A stretch of 64,000 bases of DNA, from NCBI GenBank assembly GCA_963801995.1, contig CAWDGW010000017.1, forward strand, positions 27,690 to 91,689. The letters are read 5' to 3'. The notes under the pieces were generated by a model. It saw only the letters and a list, made by a program, of their open reading frames with translations. It made no database searches and had not been told where the DNA came from. This DNA comes from an uncultured Holophagae bacterium. Lineage in GTDB: Bacteria; Acidobacteriota; Thermoanaerobaculia; Thermoanaerobaculales; Sulfomarinibacteraceae. Made by a program: the position numbers and the translations under genes. Within the stretch, counting starts at the first letter, position 1. Every line of letters starts with the position of its first letter. This document shows positions 1 through 58,647 of the stretch, piece by piece.

Positions 1-458
1 GCAACCTCTACCAGTTCCTGCCGAACGGGACTCTTGTGGGCACCGGTTCGGCCCCAACCAGCAAACCAACCGGCCTGACCTGGGACGGAACATATCTCTG
101 GACGGCAGATTACCAGGCCGATATGATCTACCAGTTCGACACCAGTGGGGCGGTTGTCCACTCCTTTCCCTCCCCGACTCCAAACCCATGGGGTGTCGCC
201 TGGTGCAGCGGTTCGCTATGGACCTCTGCAAGCGTTGACAACATGTATATCAAGGTGAACCCCACCACGGGAGCGGTGATCGAGTCGTTTCCGGCACCAG
301 CAGGCGCCTGGCCGCTGGGACAGGACTGCCAATCGGCCAACCTGCTCTGGTCAGTAGGGAACCACAACAACCTGATCTACCTCATCGACCTCGGCGTGCT
401 GTTCACCGACGGCTTCGAATCCGGCGACACCTCGGCGTGGTCGCAGACCGTGCCGTAA
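1..458 (+). CDS. 3' part of a secreted beta-propeller-like repeat protein (5' end outside window) ending in the DGFESGDTSAWS tail
   Basis: The reading frame is open from the window edge (track ORF 36..458). It has repeated blade-like segments (YLWTADYQADMIYQFD, SLWTSASVDNMYIKVN, LLWSVGNHNNLIYLID). The C-terminus is LFTDGFESGDTSAWSQTVP-stop. Confidence 0.6.
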   Translation, partial: NLYQFLPNGTLVGTGSAPTSKPTGLTWDGTYLWTADYQADMIYQFDTSGAVVHSFPSPTPNPWGVAWCSGSLWTSASVDNMYIKVNPTTGAVIESFPAPAGAWPLGQDCQSANLLWSVGNHNNLIYLIDLGVLFTDGFESGDTSAWSQTVP

Positions 459-884: not shown

Positions 885-1850
885 TCAAGTGCCGGGGAGT
901 CTCCCTGTGTCCTTCAGGAATCGCTGCAGATCGTCGTGGAGCTTGTCGAGACGCGGTCGTTGATTCTCGTCGATTGCGCTCCGGAGTCTTCCAATTCGGG
1001 TGAGAGTCTCGGGGTAGCTCGAAACGTAGAGCGCTATTTTTGCTTCATTCGCGACTGGATCTGAGTGGTACTCAAGAAATGCCCACAGAGCTGCGTTTGA
1101 AGCCGTGGTTCTGGTGAGCTGTTCCTCATTGGCGTGAGGATTCGACGTGGACCAGCCAACGGAGTTGCCTGTCTTGCCCAGAGCGGTGAGGAGTTGCCGA
1201 GCGAATTCGGGCGGAGGATGTTTGTACAGTTCTGTGGCCAGTCTCTTGGCCGCGATCTCTCGTCTGGCTGCTCCGAGGCCCGTCAGGACAGCGTGCCGAA
1301 ACCACTCAGGTTGATCCTGATCATCTGCCAGGCCCAGCAGAATCTCGAGCGCCTGGTCGGATTCAAGTCTTGCAATAGACTCCGCAATCACGTGCGCTGT
1401 TGGGGCGTCATCCTCAATTCGAAGAAGAGCGACAAGCGATGGTAGGGATCTACTATCTCGCATCAAGCCAACTGCGAAGATTAGGTTGTGTCTGACCTGC
1501 GCCCAATAGTGGTCTGAGAGCTGATCGAGAGGTGGCTCCGCGACCACCAGGAGTTCCAAAGCTGGGGCCAGGAAGCGGGGTTCTTGACCGAGATGGAAGG
1601 CGAATGACACGACACCGGCATGTGACCGCGCGGCCATTTGAGGAGCCTCGGCGACAAGATCCTGGAGAGCGAAAAAGAAATCGGGATGTTGTTTCCGTGA
1701 CTCAAGAATCCAATCAAGCAAGGCTTCCCTGTCAGATGAGGACAAAAGGTCGAGGGGTCTTGCGGGAGGGGGGAATCCTTCGAGGTCTTGACACGACGGC
1801 AAGGCCAGCGAAGTGATGAGAATGAGGGCGTGTATCGAAGTTCGCCTCAT
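885..1850 (-). CDS. putative lipoprotein, helical (HEAT/ARM-like) repeat protein
   Basis: 321-aa ORF. The N-terminus MRRTSIHALILITSLALPSCQ looks like a signal peptide with a lipobox-like Cys. The sequence is helix-rich and I recognised no catalytic motif. Confidence 0.5.
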   Translation of the reverse strand: MRRTSIHALILITSLALPSCQDLEGFPPPARPLDLLSSSDREALLDWILESRKQHPDFFFALQDLVAEAPQMAARSHAGVVSFAFHLGQEPRFLAPALELLVVAEPPLDQLSDHYWAQVRHNLIFAVGLMRDSRSLPSLVALLRIEDDAPTAHVIAESIARLESDQALEILLGLADDQDQPEWFRHAVLTGLGAARREIAAKRLATELYKHPPPEFARQLLTALGKTGNSVGWSTSNPHANEEQLTRTTASNAALWAFLEYHSDPVANEAKIALYVSSYPETLTRIGRLRSAIDENQRPRLDKLHDDLQRFLKDTGRLPGT

Positions 1851-1941
1851 GGCAAGGGTTCCCTCCTACAGCCTACCGATTTCGAGCTAAGCGGACCAAA
1901 CCCGGAAGGGTTTGGGTCCGCTTGAGCGAGTGGTTAGGCAT

Positions 1942-2579: not shown

Positions 2580-3575
2580 ATGGGTCGTCGACCAAGGGTT
2601 CTTGTTGCGGGTGGTATATACCATGTGTACAACCGGGTAACTCGCGGCGCGGATGTTTTTAAGAACGAGGACGAGGCGGACAGGCTGGAAGCCCTCGTTG
2701 CCGAGACCAAGAAGAGAGACGATTTTCAGATCCTCGCCTGGTGCGTGATGTCGAACCACTACCATCTCGCCGTAAGAATGGGGGAGGTATTGCTGTCGCG
2801 ATCGATGCGAAGGATCCACCATCGGTTTTCGCAGAGTTACAACGGCAGGAATCGGCTGTTCGGTCCTTTCTGGCAGGGTCGCTACCGATCGAAGATTGTG
2901 GATGACGACGAGTATCTGAGGCAACTCATCGCGTACATTCATCTCAATCCGGTAGCTGCAGGCATTGTCACCGACGCAGCAGAATACCGATGGTGCGGGC
3001 ATCGGGAGGTACTGGGGAAGGCGCTTGGGCGTCGTTTGGTCGACGTTGACGAGACCCTATTGGCTTTCGGCCCCAAGCGGCGCAGCGCGTTGGCTGGATA
3101 TCGTTCGACGATGTCAAGTGGGCATGAACAGGATTGGTGGGGGGAAGGTCCTGGTCGGCTGCCCTGGTGGCGGGTGGGGCGTCCTCCGAACAGCGATGAC
3201 GGAATGGAGATCGCCGTCGACGACAAACGTCCACGGATTGGGGTGGACGGGCTGAGTAGTGTCATGCCGAGGCCGAGGATGGCGCTCGAAGAATTTCTCG
3301 AGCACGGTGCAGGAGCGTGCGGGATCACGCTGACAGATCTCAGGAGCCGAAAACGACGGGCGTCGATTGTAGAAGCTCGAGAAATACTGGCCTGGATTGG
3401 TGTTGAGTTGTTTGGTTTTTCGGTCAAGGAAATGGCCGAAGGGCTCGAAAAGTATGTTGAAACTGCCAGTCGGCTGGTCAGCAGGGCTTCGCAGCGAAGG
3501 ATTGTGGATCAGGGCTTTGAGGATCAGGTAAGGCGGGTTGATTCTGTACTCGCGGGGACGACGGAAACGCAATGA
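2580..3575 (+). CDS. REP-associated tyrosine transposase (RAYT, IS200/Y1 HUH family) with C-terminal DnaA-C-like HTH region
   Basis: YHVYNRVTRG start, HUH motif in WCVMSNHYHLAV, and a Tyr helix in LIAYIHLNPVAAGIV...YRWCGH. The C-terminal REILAWIGVELFGFSVKEMAEGL resembles a DnaA domain IV-type HTH. Confidence 0.85.
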   Translation: MGRRPRVLVAGGIYHVYNRVTRGADVFKNEDEADRLEALVAETKKRDDFQILAWCVMSNHYHLAVRMGEVLLSRSMRRIHHRFSQSYNGRNRLFGPFWQGRYRSKIVDDDEYLRQLIAYIHLNPVAAGIVTDAAEYRWCGHREVLGKALGRRLVDVDETLLAFGPKRRSALAGYRSTMSSGHEQDWWGEGPGRLPWWRVGRPPNSDDGMEIAVDDKRPRIGVDGLSSVMPRPRMALEEFLEHGAGACGITLTDLRSRKRRASIVEAREILAWIGVELFGFSVKEMAEGLEKYVETASRLVSRASQRRIVDQGFEDQVRRVDSVLAGTTETQ

Positions 3576-10056: not shown

Positions 10057-10647
10057 CTACTCGACCGAGAACGACATCAGCTCCACGGGGACGATGTTCT
10101 GGCCGTAGACGGCGTCGTCTAACCTGACCTCATAGTCACTTGGGCTGGAGCAGAGGATATTGAATTGAACTGATTCCGCCGTTGCGGGGGCGACATGGCT
10201 CTCTAATGTCTCCTGCCATGTGGAGTCAACGACGAGAAGCGTGTCGAATTCATAGGCAAGAAAGAAACTGCAGCTTGTGTCGGTGTAGTAGTTTGCGCGA
10301 GCATAGCATGAGGTTTGACCGGACGCGATTTTGACTGAGAATCCCATGTCATAGGTCTCACCAGCGGTCACAGAAAAACACCCCTGTGCGATATGGACAT
10401 GATAGTTCGCGCCGTCGTACTGACCGTCCACCTCGATGCACCCGGCCGCCGTCGCGCCGTCGGCCGGCTGGTGCAGAAACGTGTCACCGTGAGTGAGCCA
10501 CCAATCGGTCAGATCGGTTGTGAAGTCGCAGTTGCTCAGGGAATTTCCCGCCTGATTGCAGTCCACGGCCCCGGCCGGTGCGGCGATCAGCCCGGTCAAC
10601 GCGATTAGCCCGATGATCATTGCGCCCCGATGTATCCCGTTCATCAT
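10057..10647 (-). CDS. secreted CBM4_9/jelly-roll-like protein ending in VPVELMSFSVE
   Basis: Signal peptide MMNGIHRGAMIIGLIALTGLIAAPAGA. The segment NCDFTTDLTDWWLTHG resembles the first strand of CBM4_9-type modules. The C-terminus is IVPVELMSFSVE-stop. Confidence 0.55.
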   Translation of the reverse strand: MMNGIHRGAMIIGLIALTGLIAAPAGAVDCNQAGNSLSNCDFTTDLTDWWLTHGDTFLHQPADGATAAGCIEVDGQYDGANYHVHIAQGCFSVTAGETYDMGFSVKIASGQTSCYARANYYTDTSCSFFLAYEFDTLLVVDSTWQETLESHVAPATAESVQFNILCSSPSDYEVRLDDAVYGQNIVPVELMSFSVE

Positions 10648-18297: not shown

Positions 18298-20092
18298 ATG
18301 AAACCGGTAGCTCTCGCACTTTGCGTACTGATGTTGACCCTTTTCGCCGCTGCCGATGCCCAGGCAGCTTATGTTGTGGGAGACCCAATCGCCGATTTCA
18401 CGTTGAATGACGCTTTTGGCACGCCGGTCTCGCTGAGCGACTTCGAAAACAAGGTGATCTGGCTGGATTTCTGGGCCGACTGGTGAAGCTTCTGTGGTGC
18501 GGAGGCTCCGCACGTACAGGAAATCTGGGAAACCTATCGTGATCGAGGGCTCATGGTGCTCAGCATCGGGGACAATATGACGCAGGCCAAATGCCAGGCG
18601 TGGATAGCCACTCTACGGCATGACCCATCCGGTGCTGGCCGACCCAGGCAGCGTCGTCAGTGATTTGTTCGGCAGCGCTCTGCCGCACAACTCCATCATC
18701 GACGGTGAGATGATCCTGCAGTACACCGCAGCTGGGTTCTACCACACAGCAGTCATCAACAAGATTGAGGAACTGCTGGACGAGCTGCTCTGGATCGATC
18801 ACGTCCCGGTGTTCGACTCGGAAGACGACGTGAATCCCTACTCAACCCACTGCTCGATCACATCGGAGTACCCGCTGATCCCCGATGATCTGATGCTGCA
18901 CTGGAACCTGGACGGCGGTGGGACCTTCAACGATGTGATCCTGACGGCTCTCGGCGGCGACGAGTACACCGCCGAGATTCCTGCTCAACCCTATGGAACA
19001 ACGGTGTATTACTACCTTTCCTCCGCCGATACGGGTGGCCGAACGATCACCGATCCCTCCGACGCCCCCGCCGAGCTGCACAGCTTCTATGTGGGAGAAG
19101 ACACGACACCGCCGGAGATCGATCATGAGCCACTGACGGATCGGTCCCTGTACATGTGGCCGTCCACGGTCAGTGCCACGGTCACAGATAATCTGGGCAA
19201 CGACAACACGGTCACCCTCGAGTTCATGATCAACGGGGGACCGGTTGAGTCGGTTCCAATGACAGGCATCACGGTTGTGTACGAAGCAGATTTCTTCGGC
19301 ACCTTGTTCGACGGTGACACTGTCGAGTATCGGATCATCGCCGTTGATGCTTCCGCCGCGGCGCACACGACCACCGATCCCGAATCGGGTTACCACTCCT
19401 TTTCTGTCGTCGAGGCGACTCCGGTGTTCATCTTCGAGCCTGGCGGGGCGCCGCTGAGCGGAGCCGCCATTGCTCAAGAGCTGGATGCGTTGGGCGTTGT
19501 CTACGACATGGAGACCACGGTGCCGGACAACTGCCTCCTGTACCGCTCCATATTCATGTGCCTGGGAGTTTACTCAAGCAATCATCAGCTCACGGCGGCC
19601 GAGGGACAGGTGCTGGCCGAGTTTCTTGACAACGGCGGCGGGCTGTACATGGAGGGCGGAGACACGTGGGCCTACGATCCCACCACGGCTGTGCACCCGT
19701 ACTTCAATATCAACGGCCTGGCCGACGGTACCGGCGACGCCGGGCCCATCCAGGGAACGGTCGGGACCTTTACCGAAGGGATGTACTTCACCTATGGGGG
19801 GGCGGGGACCAACAGCTATATCGATCACATCGCGCCCATGGGCGGTGCCCAAGCGATCTTCCTGAATGTCGCGCCGGCGTACATCAACGGGGTCGCCTAT
19901 GACGGGGGCACCTATCGCACCGTTGGAACGAGCTTCAAATTCGCGGGCCTGCAGGACGGGCCCGAGCCGAGCACCAAGAACGAGCTACTTGTGAAGATCC
20001 TCGAGTTCTTCGAAATGAACCCACGCGGCATTCTGCTCGAGGACGGCTTCGAGTCGGGCGACACGTCGGCGTGGAGCTCTACAGTGCCCTGA
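18298..20092 (+). CDS. secreted TlpA/ResA-like thioredoxin-fold domain (in-frame UGA in WUSFC) fused to a ~450-aa domain; ends in the DGFESGDTSAWS tail; one frameshift near 18613
   Basis: AAGGAGG precedes the ATG at 18298, followed by signal MKPVALALCVLMLTLFAAADAQA. The sequence reads VIWLDFWADW-TGA(18484..18486)-SFCGAEAP and continues in frame. The Trx fold resumes in track ORF 18620.. (YGMTHPVLADPGSVVSDLFG...PHNSIIDGEMIL) after a 1-nt shift. The C-terminus is LLEDGFESGDTSAWSSTVP-stop. Confidence 0.65.
18497..18513 (+). promoter_or_regulatory. candidate bacterial SECIS hairpin
   Basis: gtgcgga GGC tccgcac forms a perfect 7-bp stem. The loop G residues lie 20 nt after the U of the in-frame UGA. 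Flanking tgt/aca could extend the stem. Confidence 0.5.
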
Positions 20093-23156: not shown

Positions 23157-24008
23157 CTACTCGATGCCGAAGGTCTGCAAGTCCACCGGCACGATGCACT
23201 GGTCCGGGACGCCGCCTGACTGAGCGGTGGGCGGCGCGAACACCACCGCTAGACCGGGAGCGAGCGACGCGGTGTTGCACGAGTATTGCAGCGCCCAATC
23301 CGGCGGAGAGACATCGGTGCCCTGAATGCCGATTGTGGAGGAGGCTCCGTTGCTCTGAGCTGCGTCGTCGTTGGCCGGCTGAGCATACTGGAGGATGACC
23401 GTGCCATCGGCGAACAGCACCACCTCGAACTCCATGTCGTCGTCAGTGCTGCCGAAATCCGAAATGTTGTGGAACTGGATCACCGTGCACTGAGAGCCGC
23501 CGGCGCCGACCGGGCAGGTGGCGAAGGTCTCGTAGTAGACGTCGCCGTTGGCCTGGACCTCGAGGTCGTCGTGGTAGGCCGCGATAAAGGTGTTGACACC
23601 GTACGAGCCCTGGGTCGCCGGCAGCGGGCAGACGTTGCCGAGGCCGAGGTAGACGTCAATGAAGTGCACGACCCCATTGCTGCCGACGTAGAATTCGGTG
23701 AGTGGCGTCCCATAGAAGTCAAAGCTGAATCCAACCGGGAACGGACCTTCGTGGCCGTCGTCCACCCCCGCCAGCGCCGCGGCGGTGCCCGTGGCGGTGA
23801 TGTCCACGTAGCTGTAGGTCCCCATGCACGGGGTCTCAGCGGTGTCCATGAACACGTAGCCGTAGTCGTCGGGGCCGCCGACGGCGCGAACCTCTCCGCC
23901 CTGATTCGACGGTCCCGGGCTGTTCGTCTTATCCTCGATTTCAGCGGCGAGCGGCAGTGCCATCACCGCGACCATGACGCCGACCAGGCACACAATGCGT
24001 GAGTTCAT
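23157..24008 (-). CDS. secreted hypothetical protein ending in VPVDLQTFGIE
   Basis: Signal MNSRIVCLVGVMVAVMALPLAA. 283 aa with no catalytic motif seen. The C-terminus is CIVPVDLQTFGIE-stop. Confidence 0.55.
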   Translation of the reverse strand: MNSRIVCLVGVMVAVMALPLAAEIEDKTNSPGPSNQGGEVRAVGGPDDYGYVFMDTAETPCMGTYSYVDITATGTAAALAGVDDGHEGPFPVGFSFDFYGTPLTEFYVGSNGVVHFIDVYLGLGNVCPLPATQGSYGVNTFIAAYHDDLEVQANGDVYYETFATCPVGAGGSQCTVIQFHNISDFGSTDDDMEFEVVLFADGTVILQYAQPANDDAAQSNGASSTIGIQGTDVSPPDWALQYSCNTASLAPGLAVVFAPPTAQSGGVPDQCIVPVDLQTFGIE

Positions 24009-31739: not shown

Positions 31740-34556
31740 GTGAGGATGGCTTCAATGCGGACGATTCGGTTGTTGGGACTTGTTGGGGGCGTGCTGTTTC
31801 TGCTCACCCGGGGCGCGGTTCTGGTCGAGGCTCAGGAACCACCTGACATTTCCGTGGAAGTTGTGGAAGTTGCGGCCGGGTCGGTCAACTCAAACCCGTC
31901 GGATCCGATCGTGTGGAACGGCCGTGTGTTCTTCTCAGCCGACGACCAGTTTGAGTGCGCCGGCAACATTCCGGGGGAGCCGACAGGGGATGAATTGGGC
32001 GAGTATGGCAGGGAACTCTTCACCGCTGAAATCGGAACCGGACCAATCCTCGTCGACGACATCAACACCAATACCAGTGGAAATTGCGACGGCGTCAGCT
32101 CCCTTGTTCATGAGCAGGCAGCTGGATATGCCGGCGCGCTCCTGTTCAGAGCTCGTGATCGAGCAGGCTCATCAAACTCTACTGGTTGGGAACCGTGGCG
32201 AACAGAGGGCACGCCCGAGACCACTCAGGTTGCGGCCAATATATGGACCGGTTCAGGCCACTCGTACCCCTATGGGATGGCGACCGTTCTCGACGGATCT
32301 CGCGTGGCTTTTGGGGCAACTCACGGTCTGTGGGGCACCGAACCGTGGATCAGCGACGGCACCCAGGGAGGAACCCATCCGACTGGCAACATCGCTGCGG
32401 ACGACTACGACAGCGATCCGCGTTCATTTACGCCGCTGGATTCCACCCGATTTGTCTTTGCCGCCACCGACGACGACGTGTTGGACGAGGAGCTCTACGT
32501 CTCGGACGGCTCGACGTCCACCCTGGTGGCAGACATCAACCCGGCGGCCTTTGTCGGATCGAGCATCCGCTTCCTGACAACCTTCGCGGGCCAATCAAGA
32601 GTGGTCTTCTTTGCGGATGATGGAAGCAGTGGCAGCGAACCCTGGGTCAGCGACGGAACCGCAGGCGGGACATTTCGACTCGCAGACATCAACCCCGGAA
32701 CTGGCTCATCGAACACGACTCCCGAGGACAGTCACAACAAGGTCTTTACCCAGGTGGGCGATCTCATGTTCTTCTCGGCCACCGACGGTGCGACGGGCAA
32801 CGAGCTTTGGGTCACCGACGGGACCGGCGCCGGAACCCGGTTGGTGGCGGAGATCGTGCCTGGCTCGAGCGGCGGGTTCTCCGGGCAAGCCGCCGAATTC
32901 CAGGGCCTTCTTTTCTTTGGAGCGCCGGGAATAGGTTTGTGGACGAGTGATGGAACCGAACTGGGCACCGGTCCGCTGGTGGAGGGGGTTTTCCCTTCTG
33001 CGCTGCGGGAACTCACGGTTGTCGGCGACCTGCTCTACTTTGCCTCGGAGGAGGACCTTTGGGTCTCGGACGGAACCGTATCCGGCACGGTGCAAGTGCA
33101 GACCTTTCCGAACGGCAATGTGCCGCGGGCGCTGACCGCGGTTGGTACGACCATGCTCGCGTTCATCTCGCGGACCGCTGAAAGCGGCGAAGAGATCTTC
33201 CTGGCCTACGACGCGAGCCTCGGTCCCGACACAACGGGCCCGGCAATCGCGATAGGTTTTGCGCCAATTCCGATTGGTGTGTTCGAAGACGGAACCCTTA
33301 CGGGCACCGCGAATGAAGCGAATACGGGCGGTGCCGACATCTCGCTCATCGAGTTCCAGCTCGATGGACTTGATTGGGTACCAATGGAAGCCGCTGATGG
33401 TGCCTATGACTCGCCGCTGGAAACCGGCTTTGAGATCGTCAGCTTTGGGACCGAGGGACTGCACCAAGCGTGCGTGCGGGCCACGGATTCGCTGGGCAAC
33501 CTCGGCGACACGACCTGTATCGACATCCAGGTGGGTGCCGGTGATTCGACTCCGCCGCCACCTCCCACGATGAGTGTCGATCCAAACCCGGTCCTGGTGG
33601 ATGATCCAGCGACATTGAGCGTCACGGCGAGCGACGTGACCACCGGCAACTCTCAGATCCTGATCATCGAGTACAGCGTCGACGGAGGAAACTGGATCTC
33701 CATCCTGACCCCGGTAGACGGCTTCTACGACGAGCCCACCGAAGAGGGTGAGGTGGAGCTCAGTTTCAGCACCGCCGGCGTCCACGCCGTCTGCACTCGA
33801 GCTGCCGACGTTGCCAACAACGTGGGCGATCCGTCCTGCGTCGACGTCCAGGTGGATGCGCCCGAGCCGACCATCCGGTTGCGTGGGATCGAGGTCAACC
33901 AGGTGATCCAGTCGTGGCGCAACGACGTCCCGCTGTATCGCAAGAAGCCGACAGTCGTCCGTGTGTTCCTGGAGAAGGTCGCACCAGATGGGCCGACGGC
34001 CGCCCGCGGATCGCTCCACGGATCGATTGGCGGGTCCCCGTTGCCTGGGAGCCCCCTGCCCTCGGACGGTCTCCGTTTTGCACAGCTCGCCGAAGACGCC
34101 ACGGTGGCGGATGACCCGGAGACTCCCGAGACCAACGAGTCCTGGCGGGCCCACCTCGAGAACAGCCTTCAGTTCACTCTTCCGGACAGCTGGATCGATC
34201 ACGCCGAGGCCGTCGATTTGGAGTTCAGGGTGAGCAGTCCGCTGAATTCCGTTCTCGCCTGTGAAGAGCCGGACGGAAGTCCTGACTGCGTCGCACGGGT
34301 GATCTTCGAGAACGCGGAGCGGCCGCTGATCGAGTTCTTTGCCGCCGCTTACAATCAAAACCACGATTTCAAGCTGGAGGTCAACGCCACCGGCGGGACG
34401 TTCATTCTGAGCAGTGACGGACGCGACAGCGACCCGATCCCCTTCGACGCGACTGTGGAGGAGCTCGAGGACGCGGTTGAAGACGTTTTGAATTCGCGCG
34501 ATGGTCGAGTCCGCGTCTGGTGCGATGAATGTGGATGCGAACCCGCGCGGGTATGA
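31740..34556 (+). CDS. giant secreted ELWxxDGT-repeat protein, N-terminal ORF (probably continuous with 34501..36390)
   Basis: Signal MRTIRLLGLVGGVLFLLTRGAVLVEAQE. Repeated units include EPWISDGTQGGT, ELYVSDGSTSTL, EPWVSDGTAGGT, ELWVTDGTGAGT, GLWTSDGTELGT and DLWVSDGTVSGT, followed by Ig-like segments. Confidence 0.75.
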   Translation: MRMASMRTIRLLGLVGGVLFLLTRGAVLVEAQEPPDISVEVVEVAAGSVNSNPSDPIVWNGRVFFSADDQFECAGNIPGEPTGDELGEYGRELFTAEIGTGPILVDDINTNTSGNCDGVSSLVHEQAAGYAGALLFRARDRAGSSNSTGWEPWRTEGTPETTQVAANIWTGSGHSYPYGMATVLDGSRVAFGATHGLWGTEPWISDGTQGGTHPTGNIAADDYDSDPRSFTPLDSTRFVFAATDDDVLDEELYVSDGSTSTLVADINPAAFVGSSIRFLTTFAGQSRVVFFADDGSSGSEPWVSDGTAGGTFRLADINPGTGSSNTTPEDSHNKVFTQVGDLMFFSATDGATGNELWVTDGTGAGTRLVAEIVPGSSGGFSGQAAEFQGLLFFGAPGIGLWTSDGTELGTGPLVEGVFPSALRELTVVGDLLYFASEEDLWVSDGTVSGTVQVQTFPNGNVPRALTAVGTTMLAFISRTAESGEEIFLAYDASLGPDTTGPAIAIGFAPIPIGVFEDGTLTGTANEANTGGADISLIEFQLDGLDWVPMEAADGAYDSPLETGFEIVSFGTEGLHQACVRATDSLGNLGDTTCIDIQVGAGDSTPPPPPTMSVDPNPVLVDDPATLSVTASDVTTGNSQILIIEYSVDGGNWISILTPVDGFYDEPTEEGEVELSFSTAGVHAVCTRAADVANNVGDPSCVDVQVDAPEPTIRLRGIEVNQVIQSWRNDVPLYRKKPTVVRVFLEKVAPDGPTAARGSLHGSIGGSPLPGSPLPSDGLRFAQLAEDATVADDPETPETNESWRAHLENSLQFTLPDSWIDHAEAVDLEFRVSSPLNSVLACEEPDGSPDCVARVIFENAERPLIEFFAAAYNQNHDFKLEVNATGGTFILSSDGRDSDPIPFDATVEELEDAVEDVLNSRDGRVRVWCDECGCEPARV

Positions 34557-36390
34557 CATCATCGTATCGCGAGGCCAGGCGGAAGAACTCCTCGTCGACG
34601 ACGCCCTTCTGGCCGGGACAGCGGTCGTGACCACCACCCAGATTGGGGGGCCGAGGAAGGTCCCAACCGACGAGCATCTTCGCGAACAGATGCGGCGAAT
34701 TTCCGATGTTTTCCCCACCAACTCCGTGGACTACCGGCTTCGCGATCTGGGTGGGTTCAACAAAGCACCGACTCTGCTGAAGGTGAACAAACGGCTCAAG
34801 ACCGTTCGTGCCATGGACAAGGCCTGGGGCGACATCAACCCCGGCATCAGGAGTTTCGCGTTCCTCCTCGATATCGGTCCGTCCTCGACCAAGACCGGCA
34901 TGGCGTGGCTCAAGGTTTCTTCGACGTACGGGTTGTGGGCAGAGGCTCCAACCGCGGGAGGCAGATCAAGGAGCACCGGCGCGCACGAAGGTGCCCACAC
35001 CTGGGGACGAGCCCACGCAGTCTTCTTGTACCGACCGCCATGGGGATCGATCGGATTGTGTGGTTCGAAGTACAATGATTTGGCGTCACCCCATCATCCC
35101 TTTATCGAGTGGACCGGGATCGAGCACGATCTGGTGCACGATATCGATGACGCATGGCGCTTCTTCTGGCCGACGATTGGACCTTTGTCGGAGCCTGACG
35201 ATGAGATATGGGGTTTCTCTCCTCGGGCCTACGCCAACGGCGTGGGTTTCGATCATCTTGTTGTCATCGATCCCAGACTCAGCGCCGAGTTGATGTCCTA
35301 CTGCGATCAAGGCCGCGGTGAACAGGATCGCTGGGTGTCGTCCTTTTCGTACGAAAAGTTGCGGCAGCGGTTGGGAAGCGGAAATGGGGAGTCCGGATCT
35401 GACGGGGAGCTCGGAGGAGAAGGCGATTACATGATCATTGCCGGAGCCATCGATGATGTGACCGGCGAGGTCGAGATGGAGCCCGCTCTTCGCGTCACGG
35501 GATTCGACCCGGGTAACGACGTCGGAGAGGTGCACGTAGCGCTCGTGGATAGTCAGGGTGCCGAGATCTCGGCGCAGGACGTTGCGCTTCTGGTGGACGG
35601 TGACCACTCCTCGATGTCAGACGGTGTGGGCCCCGAGCCGGGTGCCTTTTTTGCGGCAGTAGAGATCCCGGCGGGGATAACCCCGGCAGGAATCGTCGTT
35701 TCCCTTGACGGCATCGAGATCGCGCAGGTCGAAGGGTCGGCGAATCCGCCAACCGTCGAGATCATTTCGCCCGTTGGAGGAAGTTCCGCCAGTGGATCGA
35801 TACCGATCAATTGGAACTTCGCGGATGTGAACGGCGATCTGCTGACGACGACGATCGTGTACAGCATCGACGGAGGTCTGACCTGGGAAACTCTCGCGGT
35901 CGATGTGGAAGGCACCGAATACGACGCTCCAACTCGTTTCCTCAGAGGCAGCGATCAGGCGCGGATTCGCGTGCTGGTGTCGGACGGATTCCACACCGCC
36001 GAGGCAACCTCGGAGATCTTCTCGGTGGATGCCGGATATCCCTTGGCGTCGATCGAATCTCCCATCAACGGCGCCGCGGTTGTGACCGATGGAATCGTCC
36101 ATCTGCGCGGCGATGGCTGGGATCCGGAGGATGGCGTGTTGGATGGCGTCCAGTTGGTCTGGGCATCCGATGTCGATGGTGTGCTCGGCACGGGTACGAG
36201 CATGTCGATTGCGGCCATTGAGTTGACCAGCGGGTGCCAATGGGTATCTCTCACCGCGACGGACGGCGATGGCCAATCGGACACCCGTGAAGTCGAAATC
36301 GACGTTGGCGCCACAGGATGCCTGGGACGGGAGTTCTCCGACGGATTCGAGTCCGGGGACACCTCAGCGTGGAGTGCGACATCACCGTAG
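34501..36390 (+). CDS. C-terminal ORF of the same protein: metzincin-motif protease region plus Ig-like domains, ending in the DGFESGDTSAWS tail
   Basis: HEGAHTWGRAH matches HExxHxxGxxH. It has no signal peptide of its own. Its frame opens only at 34492, overlapping the end of the upstream ORF. The C-terminus is EFSDGFESGDTSAWSATSP-stop. Confidence 0.7.
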   Translation: MVESASGAMNVDANPRGYDIIVSRGQAEELLVDDALLAGTAVVTTTQIGGPRKVPTDEHLREQMRRISDVFPTNSVDYRLRDLGGFNKAPTLLKVNKRLKTVRAMDKAWGDINPGIRSFAFLLDIGPSSTKTGMAWLKVSSTYGLWAEAPTAGGRSRSTGAHEGAHTWGRAHAVFLYRPPWGSIGLCGSKYNDLASPHHPFIEWTGIEHDLVHDIDDAWRFFWPTIGPLSEPDDEIWGFSPRAYANGVGFDHLVVIDPRLSAELMSYCDQGRGEQDRWVSSFSYEKLRQRLGSGNGESGSDGELGGEGDYMIIAGAIDDVTGEVEMEPALRVTGFDPGNDVGEVHVALVDSQGAEISAQDVALLVDGDHSSMSDGVGPEPGAFFAAVEIPAGITPAGIVVSLDGIEIAQVEGSANPPTVEIISPVGGSSASGSIPINWNFADVNGDLLTTTIVYSIDGGLTWETLAVDVEGTEYDAPTRFLRGSDQARIRVLVSDGFHTAEATSEIFSVDAGYPLASIESPINGAAVVTDGIVHLRGDGWDPEDGVLDGVQLVWASDVDGVLGTGTSMSIAAIELTSGCQWVSLTATDGDGQSDTREVEIDVGATGCLGREFSDGFESGDTSAWSATSP

Positions 36391-47757: not shown

Positions 47758-48507
47758 GTGATGACGACATCACGAACGAACCACCTGGTGTGGATCGGGG
47801 CGATTGTTTCGGTCGGCGCTTTGATCAGTTACTTCGTCTTCTTCGCTCGATTTCCGCTCCTGCGAGACACCCCGTGGGTCAACCTACCGGCCGTCGTTCT
47901 CGGCCTGGGGCTGTCGATCTTCGCGGTTGTGCGGAGACGGTCGATCTGGTCGATCGCTGGGTTGGTGCTGTCAGGGGCCTGCGTGGCTCTGCTGTTCGGA
48001 TATGTGTACGGACTGTCAAGCCAGTTGCCGGACGTTGAGGGTGTCGTTTCCGTGGGAGACGTGGCGCCGACTCTCGAGCTCGCGAATCACGACGGCCAAC
48101 TGGTCCGCCTCGAGGATTTCGGTGAAACCCAGGTCGTGCTGGTTTTCTACCGCGGCTTCTGGTGACCGTTCTGCATGTCAGAGCTGCAGGGCCTGCAGTC
48201 ACGTATCGCAGACATCAGGGCGGCCGGGGCCGAGGTGGTTGCCATTTCGGTGGATTCCCCGGAGGACAATCGCAGGGTGGCGAAGAAGCTCGACATCGAC
48301 TATTCGATCCTGTCGGATCCCGAGGCCAAGGCGATCACAGCCTATGGTGTGCTCCACCCGGAGGGTGGGATGGGCGGCAAGGATATTGCACGACCAGCCA
48401 TCTTCCTGATCGACACTGATGGAGTGATCCTGTGGCGCCGGCTCACCGAGGATTGGCGCGTGCGGGTCCGGCCGGAGCAGTTGATCGAGGCGATCCGCAG
48501 TCATTGA
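47758..48507 (+). CDS. membrane-anchored peroxiredoxin-like (AhpC/TSA-redoxin) protein with in-frame UGA in the FWUPFC redox motif (candidate selenoprotein)
   Basis: Track ORFs 47758..48165 and 48175..48507 are in the same frame. They are separated only by TGA (48163..48165) plus ccgttctgc. The joined sequence reads VVLVFYRGFW-U-PFCMSELQGLQ...VVAISVDSPEDN...ILSDPEAKAITAYGV...PAIFLIDTDGVI. The N-terminus has 3 TM helices. Confidence 0.7.
48183..48199 (+). promoter_or_regulatory. candidate bacterial SECIS hairpin
   Basis: g ctgcag GGC ctgcag t forms a 6-7 bp stem. The loop G residues lie 27 nt after the U of the in-frame UGA. It has the same GGC loop as the hairpin at 18497. Confidence 0.45.
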
Positions 48508-48524: not shown

Positions 48525-49466
48525 TCAACCAGGCAGCGACTTGGGCTTCATCAGGTTGTCTTCCATCATCTTGAGCTCGTCGATCCCGGAGATGATGATC
48601 TCGGGGTCAATCTCCAGCGCAGTGACTGTGGACTTGTCCTTGTAGTCGATCTGCGACAGGACGAATTTGATGCAATTGAGCCGCGCCTGCTTCTTGACGT
48701 CGGAGCGGACGATTGTCCACGGTGCGACGGTCCGGTTGGTTTCGGAAAGCATCTGGAACTTCTTGACGGTGTATTGGTCCCAGAGTTCCTGCGACCGTTC
48801 ATCCACGGGTGAAATCTTGTACTGCTTGAGCAGGTCGCCGTGGCGCGATCTGAACCGGCGGAGCTGCTCCTTTTTCGACACCGAAAAATAGAACTTGAAG
48901 AGCTTGATGCCATCCTTGACCAACATCTGTTCGAACATCGGCACATCTTTGAGAAAGCGCTTGTTCTCCTCGTCGGTGCAGAAACCCATGATCGGTTCCA
49001 CCATGGCGCGGTTGTACCAGGAGCGGTCGAAGAAGACGATCTCGCCGGCCGCCGGCAGGTTCGCCACATAACGCTGGAAAAACCACTGGGTTCGTTCCTT
49101 GTCGCTCGGTTTCTCCAGGGCGACCACCCGGGCTCCGCGGGGATTCATGTGCTCGGTGAAACGCTTGATGGTGCCACCCTTTCCGGCCGCGTCCCGTCCC
49201 TCGAAGAGCATCACGATCCGCAGGCCGTCGCGCCGCACCTGGGACTGCATCTTCATGAGTTCGATCTGGAGATCGTGGAGTTCCCGTTCGTACTCCAGGG
49301 TCGCTTTCTTGACCCAGACAGCTACCCGGTCCTTGCCGTTTTTGTCCTCGTGGCTCTTGAACGAAGTGTGTTCGCGGAGCTTCACCGCGCTCGGTTTTGC
49401 CGGGGTTTTGGTCTGCGCTTTTTTCGGCTTAGGGCTTTTCTTCTTGGAAGTCATGACTGTTGACAT
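48525..49466 (-). CDS. ppk2: polyphosphate kinase 2 family protein
   Basis: The P-loop is FEGRDAAGKGGTIKRF. Family motifs are FFDRSWYNRAMVEPIMGFC and ...PWTIVRSDVKKQARLN. Confidence 0.85.
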   Translation of the reverse strand: MSTVMTSKKKSPKPKKAQTKTPAKPSAVKLREHTSFKSHEDKNGKDRVAVWVKKATLEYERELHDLQIELMKMQSQVRRDGLRIVMLFEGRDAAGKGGTIKRFTEHMNPRGARVVALEKPSDKERTQWFFQRYVANLPAAGEIVFFDRSWYNRAMVEPIMGFCTDEENKRFLKDVPMFEQMLVKDGIKLFKFYFSVSKKEQLRRFRSRHGDLLKQYKISPVDERSQELWDQYTVKKFQMLSETNRTVAPWTIVRSDVKKQARLNCIKFVLSQIDYKDKSTVTALEIDPEIIISGIDELKMMEDNLMKPKSLPG

Positions 49467-49500: not shown

Positions 49501-50475
49501 TCAGCGGACGAACCTGCCCAGCTTCCTCTTCTGTTTTTGCATGATCTTCAACTCCTTGTCACCGGGGATGACGATGTCCGGATTCGGTGTGAAATCGAGG
49601 GTCCGGCTTCGCCCCGTGTACTTGATCTGGCTCAAGATCAATTTGATTGTTTCGAGCCGGGCGAGGGCCTTGTCGTCGGAACGGATGACGTACCAGGGCG
49701 TTTTCGGTGTGTGGGTCTTTTTCAGAAGGCGATACTTCATGTGGGTGAATTCGTCCCACAGGTCCTGGGCCTGGAGGTCGACTTCGCTCAGTTTCCACTG
49801 GCGCAGGGGATCGTTTTTCCGTCGTTCGAAGCGGCGGGCCTGTTCGTCCTTGGAAACCGAAAAGTAGAGTTTGATCAGGAAGGTCGCCTTGTCGGCGATG
49901 ATCCGCTCTTCGTACCCCACGACCTTGTCCATGAAACCTCTGTACTGCGCTTTGGTGCAAAACCCCATGACCGGCTCGACGAGAGCCCGGTTGTACCAGC
50001 TGCGATCGAAGAGAACGATCTCGCCGGCGTGCGGGAAATTCTCGATGTACCGTTTCATGTGGAGTTCGGTTCGCTGCTGAACCGTGGGTTTGCCGAGGGC
50101 GACGACGCGGTAGCGTTTTTCGTTCATGTAGCGGATCACGCGTCGGATCGTCCCGCCCTTGCCGGAGGCATCTCTGCCGTCAAACAGGATGATGGCCTTC
50201 TTGTTGGTCCGCTCGATGTGCTGCTGGAGCTTGATCAGCTCAGACTGATAGGGTTTGAGGACCTCAGATCTGAAGTACTTGGTGAGAGCCGCATTCAACA
50301 ACTCCTTGCGTTCCTTCTTTTTCAGGCCCTCTTGCACTGCCTGGATTTGATCGATGAGGGCCAGCCCGTACCCGTGGGACTCGATCCTCTCGACCACCGA
50401 CCGGATCCTCGAGGTGGACCCTTCGAGGCCTTCGGCTTTTGGCGCTGTCTGCTTTTTCTTGGATCCTGTTCCCAT
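49501..50475 (-). CDS. ppk2: polyphosphate kinase 2 family protein (second paralogue)
   Basis: FDGRDASGKGGTIRRV, LFDRSWYNRALVEPVMGFC and PWYVIRSDDKALARL. It lies 34 nt upstream of the first PPK2 gene on the same strand. Confidence 0.85.
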   Translation of the reverse strand: MGTGSKKKQTAPKAEGLEGSTSRIRSVVERIESHGYGLALIDQIQAVQEGLKKKERKELLNAALTKYFRSEVLKPYQSELIKLQQHIERTNKKAIILFDGRDASGKGGTIRRVIRYMNEKRYRVVALGKPTVQQRTELHMKRYIENFPHAGEIVLFDRSWYNRALVEPVMGFCTKAQYRGFMDKVVGYEERIIADKATFLIKLYFSVSKDEQARRFERRKNDPLRQWKLSEVDLQAQDLWDEFTHMKYRLLKKTHTPKTPWYVIRSDDKALARLETIKLILSQIKYTGRSRTLDFTPNPDIVIPGDKELKIMQKQKRKLGRFVR

Positions 50476-51399: not shown

Positions 51400-52437
51400 A
51401 TGTCCATGAAGCGAATCGGTATTCTGGCGTGCGTGGCCACCTTGATTGCAGCACCTCTTTTCTCCAACAGCCCCGGTATGGAGGCGACACCAGGCTTGGA
51501 GAATCGTGATGTTTCGGCCGTTTACATCTCCGATATAGACGGGGGATTCGTCGCGGTTGTGGATGTGTTGACCGACTCGATCATTGCGCTCAAGAAGACC
51601 GGTACGAATCCAGCAGAGACAGCCGTTTTCGGCGCTCTGGATCGCGCCTATGTGGCGGATCTGACCGACGGCACGGTTTCGGTGATCGACACGACGAACC
51701 ACCGGATCGTCCATACGGTCAATCTGGGAAGCCCGGTTGCGACGGTCGGTGTGGACGAAACCACCGGCACGGTGTACGCCCTCGATTTCAGCAATGGCAC
51801 ACCCGGAACGAATTTGCACATCATCGATGCCGACACCAACACCGAAATCGACGACGTCGTGATCGGTACACGACTCCAGAACCTCGCGGTCCACGCCAGC
51901 GAAAGCCGTGTCTACGCGACCGATTTTGTCGACGGAATCGTCGTGGTGGACACCACCAACAACACGGTTTCAACCACGATTCCGTTGCCCAACTCACCGC
52001 ACGGGATCGCCGTGAATCCTGCCACCGACAGTCTCTACGTGACGCAGCTGGACAACGATTCCGTAACGGTGTTCGATACCGGCACCCTGGGTGTCACCGC
52101 AACACTGGCGGTTGGTGACACGCCGCAGTGGATCGCACTGGACATCCCTCGAGGGAAGGCCTTTGTGACCAACGAAGGCGAAGGAACGGTATCGGTGATC
52201 GACATTGGCAGTAATACCGTGCTCCCGGGCCCGATTCAGGTGGGAGCCAATCCACTCACCGTGACCGTCCATTCCGGAGCCGCCAAAGCCTACGTCTTCA
52301 ACATCGGGGACGGCACGATTTCGGTCATCGATACGGTCAGCCAGGTCGTGATCGGTACCATCGATCTGGGGTTTGTGGTGTTCGCGGACGGGTTCGATTG
52401 GGGAGACACCACTGCCTGGTCTGTGGCGATCCCGTAG
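51400..52437 (+). CDS. secreted YVTN-type beta-propeller repeat protein ending in a DGFDWGDTTAWS tail
   Basis: Signal MSMKRIGILACVATLIAAPLFS. About 40-aa repeats occur (AYVADLTDGTVSVIDTTNHRIV, VYATDFVDGIVVVDTTNNTV, LYVTQLDNDSVTVFDTGTL, AFVTNEGEGTVSVIDIGSN, AYVFNIGDGTISVIDTVSQ). The C-terminus is VFADGFDWGDTTAWSVAIP-stop. Confidence 0.75.
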   Translation: MSMKRIGILACVATLIAAPLFSNSPGMEATPGLENRDVSAVYISDIDGGFVAVVDVLTDSIIALKKTGTNPAETAVFGALDRAYVADLTDGTVSVIDTTNHRIVHTVNLGSPVATVGVDETTGTVYALDFSNGTPGTNLHIIDADTNTEIDDVVIGTRLQNLAVHASESRVYATDFVDGIVVVDTTNNTVSTTIPLPNSPHGIAVNPATDSLYVTQLDNDSVTVFDTGTLGVTATLAVGDTPQWIALDIPRGKAFVTNEGEGTVSVIDIGSNTVLPGPIQVGANPLTVTVHSGAAKAYVFNIGDGTISVIDTVSQVVIGTIDLGFVVFADGFDWGDTTAWSVAIP

Positions 52438-57179: not shown

Positions 57180-58647
57180 CTACGGAACCGTCACCGACCA
57201 GGCCGTGGTATCTCCCGATTCGAACCCGTCTCCAAAGATCGCGGCGGGCCCCAGGCTGCCGTCGCCGTTCACGTTCTGGGCGAGGATGTCGCCATCCGAG
57301 AAGCCCCCGTCACTCCACGCGTAGGCTGCAAAGCCCTGCGAGGAGAGGGCACCGACGAGCCTCGATGACTCTGTGGGCAGGATGTCCACCTCGGTGATCG
57401 GCGGCGACCACGCGAAGTCCCCGTTGGTGTCGACCCGGATCGCATACACCGGATCGTTGCCGAGGCCATCACTGTGAATCCAGGCCACCATCGCTCCGTC
57501 GTTGAAGGCCAAGGTGGCGATATCCCTAATCTGGACCGGGCTGATGGGCATCAGCTCGCGGCCGCTGTCGTCCCACTGCCGGACGCCACCGGCATCGAGC
57601 TTCTGGCCGTAAAGGCCCCACTGGCTTTGCCCGAGGTTCTCCTCGGTCCAGAAGACGACGATCTCCTGGGTCGACGGGAGGAATGCGGCCCTCGGGCCGA
57701 CCCGCTGCTGCGTGGCGTTGGTGGAGACCTCGACGCCCTGGTGGGCGAAGGCTTCGGATCCATTGGCGAGGATCCGCTGGACACGGCACTGGAGCGACGG
57801 AGAGGTGATGTACCAGGAGAAGACCGCACCGCCGGCACCGTCGCTGACGAACGGCGGCCAGTTGCCCATTTGCAGGGAGGAACCGCCGTCGTAGACCTGA
57901 ACGTGCCCCGCACCCCACAGCAGGGCACCGTCCGCGGCGGCCAGCTTCTGCGCCCACAGGTGTCGCGTCCAGAAAACGGGGCTGGCGACGAACGACACGA
58001 TCGCGGTGCCGGCGTCAGAGGCGCGGAGATCACCTACGGAGAACGAGTCGGATGCCGAGGACAGGGTCACCCCGGCACCCCACAGTGCCGTTCCGGTGGG
58101 ATCGAGCTTCTGCGCCGCCACGCTGTCGTCGCTGGTCCATGCCACCACCACGTTCCCGTCGGTGGTGCCGGCGACTTTTGGTGCGGCGAAAAAGTTCGGT
58201 CCAGTGGCTACCTGCACGCCGTCTGCGCCCCATAGTAGGGTGCCGTCCGGGGAGACCTTTGCGACCGTGATTTCGTCGGACCCGCTGCGGTTGTCTCGGA
58301 AGGCGAGCAGGGCATTGCCCCCGGTGTCGATGCTCAGACCATAGTCCTGGGTCGAGCTGTACGTCCGATCCGCCACCAACACCCCGTTGTGGGCCCATTG
58401 CTCGTCGCCCGCCGCATCGAGACGCTGCAGGTAGACGTCGTAGCCACCGGTGGAGTTGTCGAACCAGCTGATATAGAAGCCTCCGTCGCCGGTGGCCACG
58501 ATTTTGGGTTGTACCTGTGCCCCTGAACGGTTGGCCACTATCAGGTTGGTTGCCGGGTCGCTGGACCACTCGGCCTAGGACAGACACTGAAGACTGCGGT
58601 CAAGACGATCAACACCAGGACCAGGGATCGTGGTACGCGGAATGCAT
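57180..58647 (-). CDS. secreted repeat protein ending in the DGFESGDTTAWS tail; N-terminal signal region out of frame
   Basis: Track ORF 57180..58538, whose frame opens at 58574. Upstream are an ATG at 58647 and a signal-like LVLVLIVLTAVFSV, both in other frames, so two shifts are needed. The C-terminus is IFGDGFESGDTTAWSVTVP-stop. Confidence 0.55.

Follow-up and report, generated by a model that had tools for sequence, protein, structure and literature searches.

A mid-gene UGA is almost certainly a selenocysteine codon for a membrane-anchored, peroxiredoxin-like redox enzyme of a Holophagae bacterium

Results

A single reading frame spans an internal UGA

The DNA analysed here, referred to as the window, is a stretch of 64,000 nucleotides from an uncultured Holophagae bacterium. 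The locus of interest is made up of the following features, all on the forward strand.

47758..48507, +, complete candidate selenoprotein gene, start GTG 47758 or ATG 47761; 249 aa
47782..48021, +, N-terminal membrane domain with three hydrophobic helices (approximately residues 9-35, 39-59 and 61-88), from hydropathy windows
48052..48435, +, AhpC/TSA domain (peroxiredoxin-like, thioredoxin-fold), residues 99-226, PF00578
48163..48165, +, in-frame UGA, predicted to be read as Sec (U136); TGA in 76 of 76 Sec-type genes, TGC in relatives
48163..48174, +, redox motif U-P-F-C (UxxC), from residue-by-residue alignment to Aeropyrum pernix (A. pernix) BCP
48183..48199, +, candidate bacterial SECIS hairpin with a 7-bp stem and the loop GGC at 48190..48192, 24 nt after the UGA
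48505..48507, +, true stop TGA of the gene, in the same frame

Two ORFs of 135 aa (47758..48165) and 110 aa (48175..48507) flank the internal TGA and, as the first-pass annotation had reported, they lie in the same frame with only that TGA and nine nucleotides encoding PFC between them. The codons preceding the TGA are GTT TTC TAC CGC GGC TTC TGG and those following it are CCG TTC TGC ATG, such that the apparent start of the downstream ORF, ATG 48175, comes directly after the PFC codons ccg ttc tgc. Read through, the sequence around U136 is VVLVFYRGFW-U-PFCMSELQGLQS, and the peptide spanning this residue is GFW-U-PFCMSELQGLQSR. With Cys substituted for the stop, the Pfam AhpC-TSA profile (PF00578) matches residues 99-226 of the read-through product over profile positions 1-123 of 124 (110 bits, E = 9.7e-32), and the Redoxin profile also matches the 249-aa read-through (2e-21). 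Because the AhpC-TSA match crosses the TGA, neither ORF half constitutes a complete domain, which bears out the earlier proposal that the AhpC/TSA fold is complete only on read-through. The membrane anchor proposed at the same time is likewise apparent from hydropathy as three hydrophobic N-terminal helices.

Homologues in several phyla carry UGA at the same position

A protein search returned 56 homologues of the gene product, and all 41 of those aligned over the N-terminal region (137-150 aa) terminate exactly at VFYRGFW, which is the expected output of a gene caller halting at an in-frame stop. Full-length but more distant homologues (P0028, 246 aa; P0040, P0047, P0050 and P0054, each ~280 aa) read FYRGFWCPFC, FYRGNWCPFC or FYRGNWCPLC, and each is a single polypeptide. 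In the DNA of two of the shortened homologues the sequence is TGG TGA CCN TTC TGC, followed by GAGCTGCAGGGTCTGCAG.

We also scanned genomes, one per GTDB species, for the peptide pattern [LV]VFYRGFW, which omits the next codon and is therefore unbiased as to whether TGA or another codon follows. The scan yielded 293 relatives, of which the best 80 were analysed; these come chiefly from Acidobacteriota, Myxococcota/Deltaproteobacteria and Planctomycetota. Among the best 80 of the 293 loci, TGA occupies the Sec position in 73, giving 76 genes together with two further loci (L001 and L002) and the window, and TGC is found in six Gemmatimonadales-type relatives and one paralogue. Neither TAA nor TAG occurs at this position in any of the 80 loci, L001, L002 or the window. 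By their labels, the TGA carriers belong to Holophagae/Thermoanaerobaculia, other Acidobacteriota, Myxococcota/Deltaproteobacteria, Planctomycetota/Phycisphaerae and Verrucomicrobia, with one from Acidimicrobiales. The check on Cys and Sec in orthologues that the first-pass annotation had proposed thus comes out as it anticipated, with TGA in 76 genes and TGC in the Cys relatives. Of the 73 homologous loci in which a stop is reached after the TGA, 72 have 109-131 open codons in frame before it. The closest family matches to the window gene, at 65% identity, come from Holophagae MAGs. A radical-SAM gene near the window gene is 75% identical to one in a related locus (L008). Both similarities assign the window to Thermoanaerobaculia/Holophagae-like Acidobacteriota. 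No gene neighbourhood of the family gene is conserved across the 80 loci.

The same comparison bears on a reading in which the UGA is simply a stop, so that the product is a 135-aa three-helix membrane protein and the 110-aa ORF beginning at ATG 48175 is either translated separately or not at all. Such an arrangement would suit the position of this ATG in the window, 9 nt after the TGA, and the fact that gene callers have annotated the halves separately in public data. Across the family, however, an ATG stands at +4 after the TGA in just 12 of 76 genes and in 16 of the 76 the downstream half contains no ATG at all; that half therefore lacks a conserved start of its own. Furthermore, neither half would be a whole domain, and the Cys homologues are made as single polypeptides. 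We consider separate ORFs to be a very unlikely explanation.

A SECIS-type hairpin follows the UGA

The hairpin at 48183..48199, described earlier as ctgcag-GGC-ctgcag, folds as proposed: ctgcag at 48184..48189 pairs with ctgcag at 48193..48198, and a G48183-U48199 wobble pair extends the stem. The distance of 27 nt first assigned to it holds if one counts from the U of the UGA to the first loop base, but corresponds to 24 nt by the SECIS convention. As quoted in PMC13188914, the published bSECIS model specifies an apical loop of 3-9 nt, an upper stem of 4-16 bp and a G in the first two loop positions, along with a spacing of 16-37 nt from the UGA and an MFE of no more than -7.5 kcal/mol. SECIS prediction had been suggested as a check on the first reading of this locus, and the window hairpin, with its GGC loop, 7-bp stem, 24-nt spacing and energy of about -9 kcal/mol, conforms to this model in every respect; an identical hairpin in the related locus L019 folds at -9.1 kcal/mol. 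Scanning the whole 64-kb window at Rfam gathering thresholds matched no family.

Taken by itself, the window hairpin does not stand out statistically: the 60-nt fold containing it has a z of -1.27, with 20 of 200 shuffles folding equally well, and the case for a more-than-chance structure therefore rests on comparative data. A perfectly paired hairpin of 5 bp or more (6 bp or more in 71 genes) is present in each of the 76 TGA genes; it has a G within the first two loop bases, and the loop begins 16-29 nt after the UGA. When the same test was applied to nine in-frame control sites elsewhere in these genes, a hairpin of at least 6 bp with G was found in 12.6% of cases, as compared with 93% of TGA genes at the UGA-proximal site. 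Five of six TGC genes show just 2-3 bp there.

Covariation is also evident. In the main clade of 35 sequences, 96.7% of the cells of the stem pair, and the closing pair (27-31) is GC in 21 sequences and AU in 10. CUGCAG/CUGCAG in some sequences corresponds to CUGCAA/UUGCAG in others, a compensatory synonymous change in which the Gln codon goes from CAG to CAA and the Leu codon from CUG to UUG. The covariation score observed for this clade exceeds that of all 500 column shuffles, and wobble bases are fixed within the stem and free to vary just outside it. The 76 genes present 43 distinct stem/loop variants, and unrelated stems are found in Myxococcota (GCUCGCC-GGUCU-GGCGAGC), Planctomycetota (CUCCGA-GGUC-UCGGAG) and some Thermoanaerobaculia (ACUCCG-AGUUA-CGGAGU). 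An MFE test by synonymous recoding shifted the energy only weakly (mean z -0.6), as the hairpin is nearly dictated by the peptide LQGLQ together with GC-rich codons. This suggests that the LQGLQ peptide has itself been shaped by the RNA requirement.

With the hairpin data in hand, it is possible to weigh the proposal that TGA 48163..48165 is a nonsense mutation in a pseudogene or a base-call error for TGC or TGT. An apparent 1-nt frameshift near 18612 in another gene of the window indicates that the assembly or the genome does have lesions. A chance lesion is nevertheless at odds with the recurrence of TGA, and never TAA or TAG, at this very position in 75 further genes spread over several phyla, with a downstream frame open in 72 of 73 loci and with a position-specific hairpin that is missing from the TGC genes. 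The comparative TGA, frame and hairpin data effectively refute this proposal, and we regard it as vanishingly improbable.

Selenocysteine machinery

No tRNA-Sec was found in the 64-kb window or in 60 related loci, and Pfam/NCBIfam searches of 30 window ORFs, among them all predicted ORFs of at least 280 aa, revealed no selA, selB or selD. The sole call by ARAGORN in the window is an 88-nt 'tRNA-Gly (tcc)' at 49758..49845 (+); it lies wholly within the opposite-strand PPK2 ORF 49501..50475 (-), is no tRNA-Sec and is probably a false positive. A tblastn search of the window and the related loci with E. coli SelA and SelD sequences as queries identified just one SelD, in the Polarisedimenticolaceae locus L012, and NCBIfam confirmed it.

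The selD gene of L012 (16538..17572, -) scores above cut-off with both TIGR00476 (341 bits) and NF002098 (305 bits). It lies 7 kb from the family gene of that locus and has an in-frame TGA at its catalytic position (SGG-U-AAK), by which sequence it would itself be a selenoprotein gene. On the metagenome contig L001, shared with a family member, an AhpC-TSA gene at 1155..1874 (-) is split into calls of 84 and 151 aa and probably encodes a Sec-containing peroxiredoxin. The Sec reading of the window gene gains indirect support from the L012 selD, from the split L001 gene and from a second TGA-in-CxxC gene in the window described below.

A further possibility is decoding without selenium, whether a near-cognate or suppressor tRNA inserts, for example, Cys or Trp, or the whole lineage has reassigned UGA; Sec machinery was indeed not seen in the 64-kb window. 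As for reassignment, TGA terminates 30 of the 45 genes in the window that encode 150 aa or more, gene 47758..48507 itself among them, and its role as an ordinary stop therefore excludes a reassigned genetic code. Against selenium-free read-through more generally stand the conserved SECIS-type hairpin, with its G-containing loop and canonical spacing, which is a hallmark of SelB-dependent decoding, and the presence of selD in L012. We therefore hold selenium-free decoding to be highly unlikely, and favor the insertion of Sec.

A second TGA gene and other features of the window

The other in-frame UGA put forward by the first-pass annotation, at 18484, is also present. Gene 18298..20092 (+) encodes a signal peptide and a TlpA/ResA-like domain with a TGA in a CxxC-type motif, DW-TGA(18484..18486)-SFC. 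The hairpin reported near this TGA as a match to that of the window gene is also present (gtgcgga-GGC-tccgcac, 18497..18513), its GGC loop at 18504..18506 beginning 17 nt after the TGA. The gene nonetheless appears to be frameshifted: the frame after the UGA closes near 18660 and the domain goes on in the +1 frame (ORF 18620..20092, YGMTHPVLADPG), which implies a 1-nt frameshift near 18612, whether from a pseudogene, a programmed shift or an erroneous indel. Once repaired, the product is 597 aa long with the C-terminal end SGDTSAWSSTVP.

A C-terminal motif, DGF[ED][SW]GDT[ST]AWSxx[VS]P at the very end of the protein, is shared by five otherwise unrelated window proteins and by one at the Holophagae locus L009 near 12836 (-). 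The carriers in the window are:

36..458, +
18620..20092, +
34501..36390, +
51400..52437, +
57180..58538, -

The motif has no match in Pfam or NCBIfam and may act as a signal, particular to this lineage, for C-terminal sorting or attachment. Two signal-peptide proteins, 10057..10647 (-) and 23157..24008 (-), have another ending in common, IVPV[ED]L[MQ][ST]F[SG][VI]E before the stop, and match no family. Directly downstream of the window gene lie tandem polyphosphate kinase 2 genes, 48525..49466 (-) and 49501..50475 (-), which match TIGR03707 with 362 and 292 bits and have a lower GC content (0.577) than their surroundings (~0.63). An IS200-like Y1 transposase domain (PF01797) is encoded at 2580..3575 (+), within the initial 4 kb of the window, where the GC content is lower.

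Protein architecture and active site

The membrane domain has no match in Pfam. Between helices 1 and 2 it carries a family motif, SYFxFFARFPxLRDxPWxN, and Y25, D37 and N42 are invariant in the 42 sequences of this domain. For the Cys homologue P0028, the AlphaFold model (pLDDT 85.9) begins with three long helices and continues into a thioredoxin/peroxiredoxin fold whose nearest solved structures are Bcp4 (3hjp, TM 0.85), BcpB, AhpE and PrxQ. By sequence, the solved proteins nearest to the window domain are likewise BCP/PrxQ, with 2cx3 at 9.6e-17.

Alignment to A. pernix BCP (2cx3) sets FFPAAFSPVC against FYRGFWCPFC, such that C139 falls at the position of the peroxidatic Cys and U136 at that of the Ser/Thr. 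The Pro and Thr/Ser of the PxxxT/SxxC motif are absent from the window protein, with Arg in place of Pro and Sec in place of Ser/Thr, and, as to the active-site Arg conserved in classical peroxiredoxins, the Arg in DIARPAIF aligns one position off register from the Arg of 2cx3. Since the Sec occupies the Thr/Ser position, not that of the peroxidatic Cys, the active site is a thioredoxin-like UxxC and not TxxC or TxxU. The first-pass description of a peroxiredoxin-like protein with a catalytic UGA is thus right as to the AhpC/TSA fold and in placing the UGA where a CxxC-type motif has its first Cys, although the protein is better described as a Prx-like UxxC thiol:disulfide oxidoreductase.

The most positive segments of the family proteins are the N-terminus and the helix 2-3 loop (mean net charge +1.9 and +3.2, respectively), and the segment after helix 3 is negative. 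In relatives such as L065, L070, L077 and L082 a signal peptide takes the place of the N-terminal helices. Based on the charge pattern and on these replacements, we place the catalytic domain outside the cytoplasm, where it probably faces the periplasm or the exterior.

Discussion

Our analysis indicates that the mid-gene "stop" at 48163..48165 is almost certainly read as selenocysteine, and that the product is a redox enzyme anchored in the membrane. That 47758..48507 is a single gene for a 249-aa selenoprotein is the best overall explanation of the locus, and one in which we have high confidence. By analogy with E. coli fdhF, a ribosome arriving at the UGA would be met by the hairpin 48183..48199, whose GGC loop would recruit SelB and Sec-tRNA(Sec). 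Sec would then be inserted at position 136 and, on the same analogy, translation would run on to the TGA stop at 48505. The predicted product has three N-terminal transmembrane helices, with the Arg-rich N-terminus and the helix 2-3 loop likely to lie on the same side of the membrane, and a C-terminal peroxiredoxin-fold domain with the active site FW-U136-P-F-C139. We suspect that the nucleophilic attack is made by Sec136, which would then be linked to Cys139 as a selenenylsulfide. In terms of enzyme type, the protein would be a thioredoxin-type UxxC thiol:disulfide (or peroxide) oxidoreductase, as opposed to a classical TxxC peroxiredoxin.

For annotation, the finding corrects a systematic error, as public gene calls split the family gene into two 'hypothetical' fragments. 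Judged by its sequence, the gene would also mark its Thermoanaerobaculia/Holophagae-like host as a selenocysteine user. What is known of Sec decoding is unchanged by the finding. The diversity of stems amounts to a clean natural collection of variants of the bacterial SECIS. The class of Prx-like UxxC selenoproteins, for its part, gains a widespread membrane-anchored and probably extracytoplasmic branch, with 293 relatives among GTDB species representatives.

A more speculative possibility, which we put forward tentatively and think somewhat doubtful, is that the FYRGFW-U-PFC proteins form a distinct, nearly always Sec-dependent subfamily, widespread in Acidobacteriota, Myxococcota and Planctomycetota, in which the three-helix domain is a functional module and not a plain anchor. 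If this is correct, the module could place an extracytoplasmic selenol at the membrane surface for the reduction of lipid or periplasmic peroxides or disulfides, and the protein would represent a type of membrane-integrated selenoenzyme so far undescribed.

The protein scores below the cut-off of every NCBIfam model. The best are thiol peroxidase (62 vs 140) and SelL_rel_redox NF040769 (57.2 vs 120); PrxU NF040737 gives 40.6 vs 270 and WAxxUGC_long NF041054 19.2 vs 300. The membrane-anchored FYRGFW-U-PFC branch thus seems to be uncurated there. The combination of the RFPxLRDxPWxN membrane domain with FYRGFW-U-PFC is unmentioned in the selenoprotein reviews consulted, and a full-text search with the motif strings returned no relevant paper.

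Relationship to known systems

The SECIS of E. coli fdhF is a SelB-binding hairpin within the coding region that follows closely on the UGA and, like the window hairpin, is capped by a small G-rich loop (GGU/GGC). The window hairpin differs from it in a spacing that is a few nucleotides longer and in that a bulged U is not evident; binding of SelB to the window hairpin is proposed by analogy.

Several redox families offer points of comparison for the protein. With TlpA/ResA/CcmG and the Sec-containing 'thiol:disulfide interchange protein' family it shares a thioredoxin fold, a CxxC-type motif, an anchor or signal peptide and a site of action that is probably extracytoplasmic, but its ResA score is 50 against a cut-off of 170 and its domain is nearer to Prx than to TlpA. 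PrxU of Eubacterium acidaminophilum (NF040737) is likewise a selenoprotein of the AhpC/TSA fold; there, however, Sec is the peroxidatic residue (TxxU), whereas the window protein has its Sec three residues before that position (UxxC). The BCP/PrxQ peroxiredoxins (A. pernix 2cx3, S. solfataricus Bcp4 3hjp and M. tuberculosis AhpE) have the same fold, with C139 at the position of their peroxidatic Cys. In contrast to these, the window protein is membrane-anchored and probably extracytoplasmic, and has Arg and Sec in place of the Pro and Thr/Ser.

The closest likeness is to the Prx-like selenoproteins with PF00578 and UxxC, known since the earliest selenoproteome surveys of prokaryotes (Kryukov & Gladyshev 2004); a 'Prx-like protein' is also part of the Sargasso Sea set. 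Such proteins are common in marine metagenomes, where 'Prx-like 1' (pfam00578, UxxC) accounts for 225 sequences in GOS. Like these thiol:disulfide oxidoreductases, the window gene has the PF00578 domain, UxxC in place of the TxxU of Sec-peroxiredoxin, Cys homologues and a candidate SECIS 3' of the UGA, and by the definition of domain and motif it fits as a member of the class. As a difference, its subfamily joins a conserved three-helix membrane domain (RFPxLRDxPWxN) to FYRGFW-U-PFC, and gene 47758..48507 possibly represents an undescribed subfamily of a well-known selenoprotein class.
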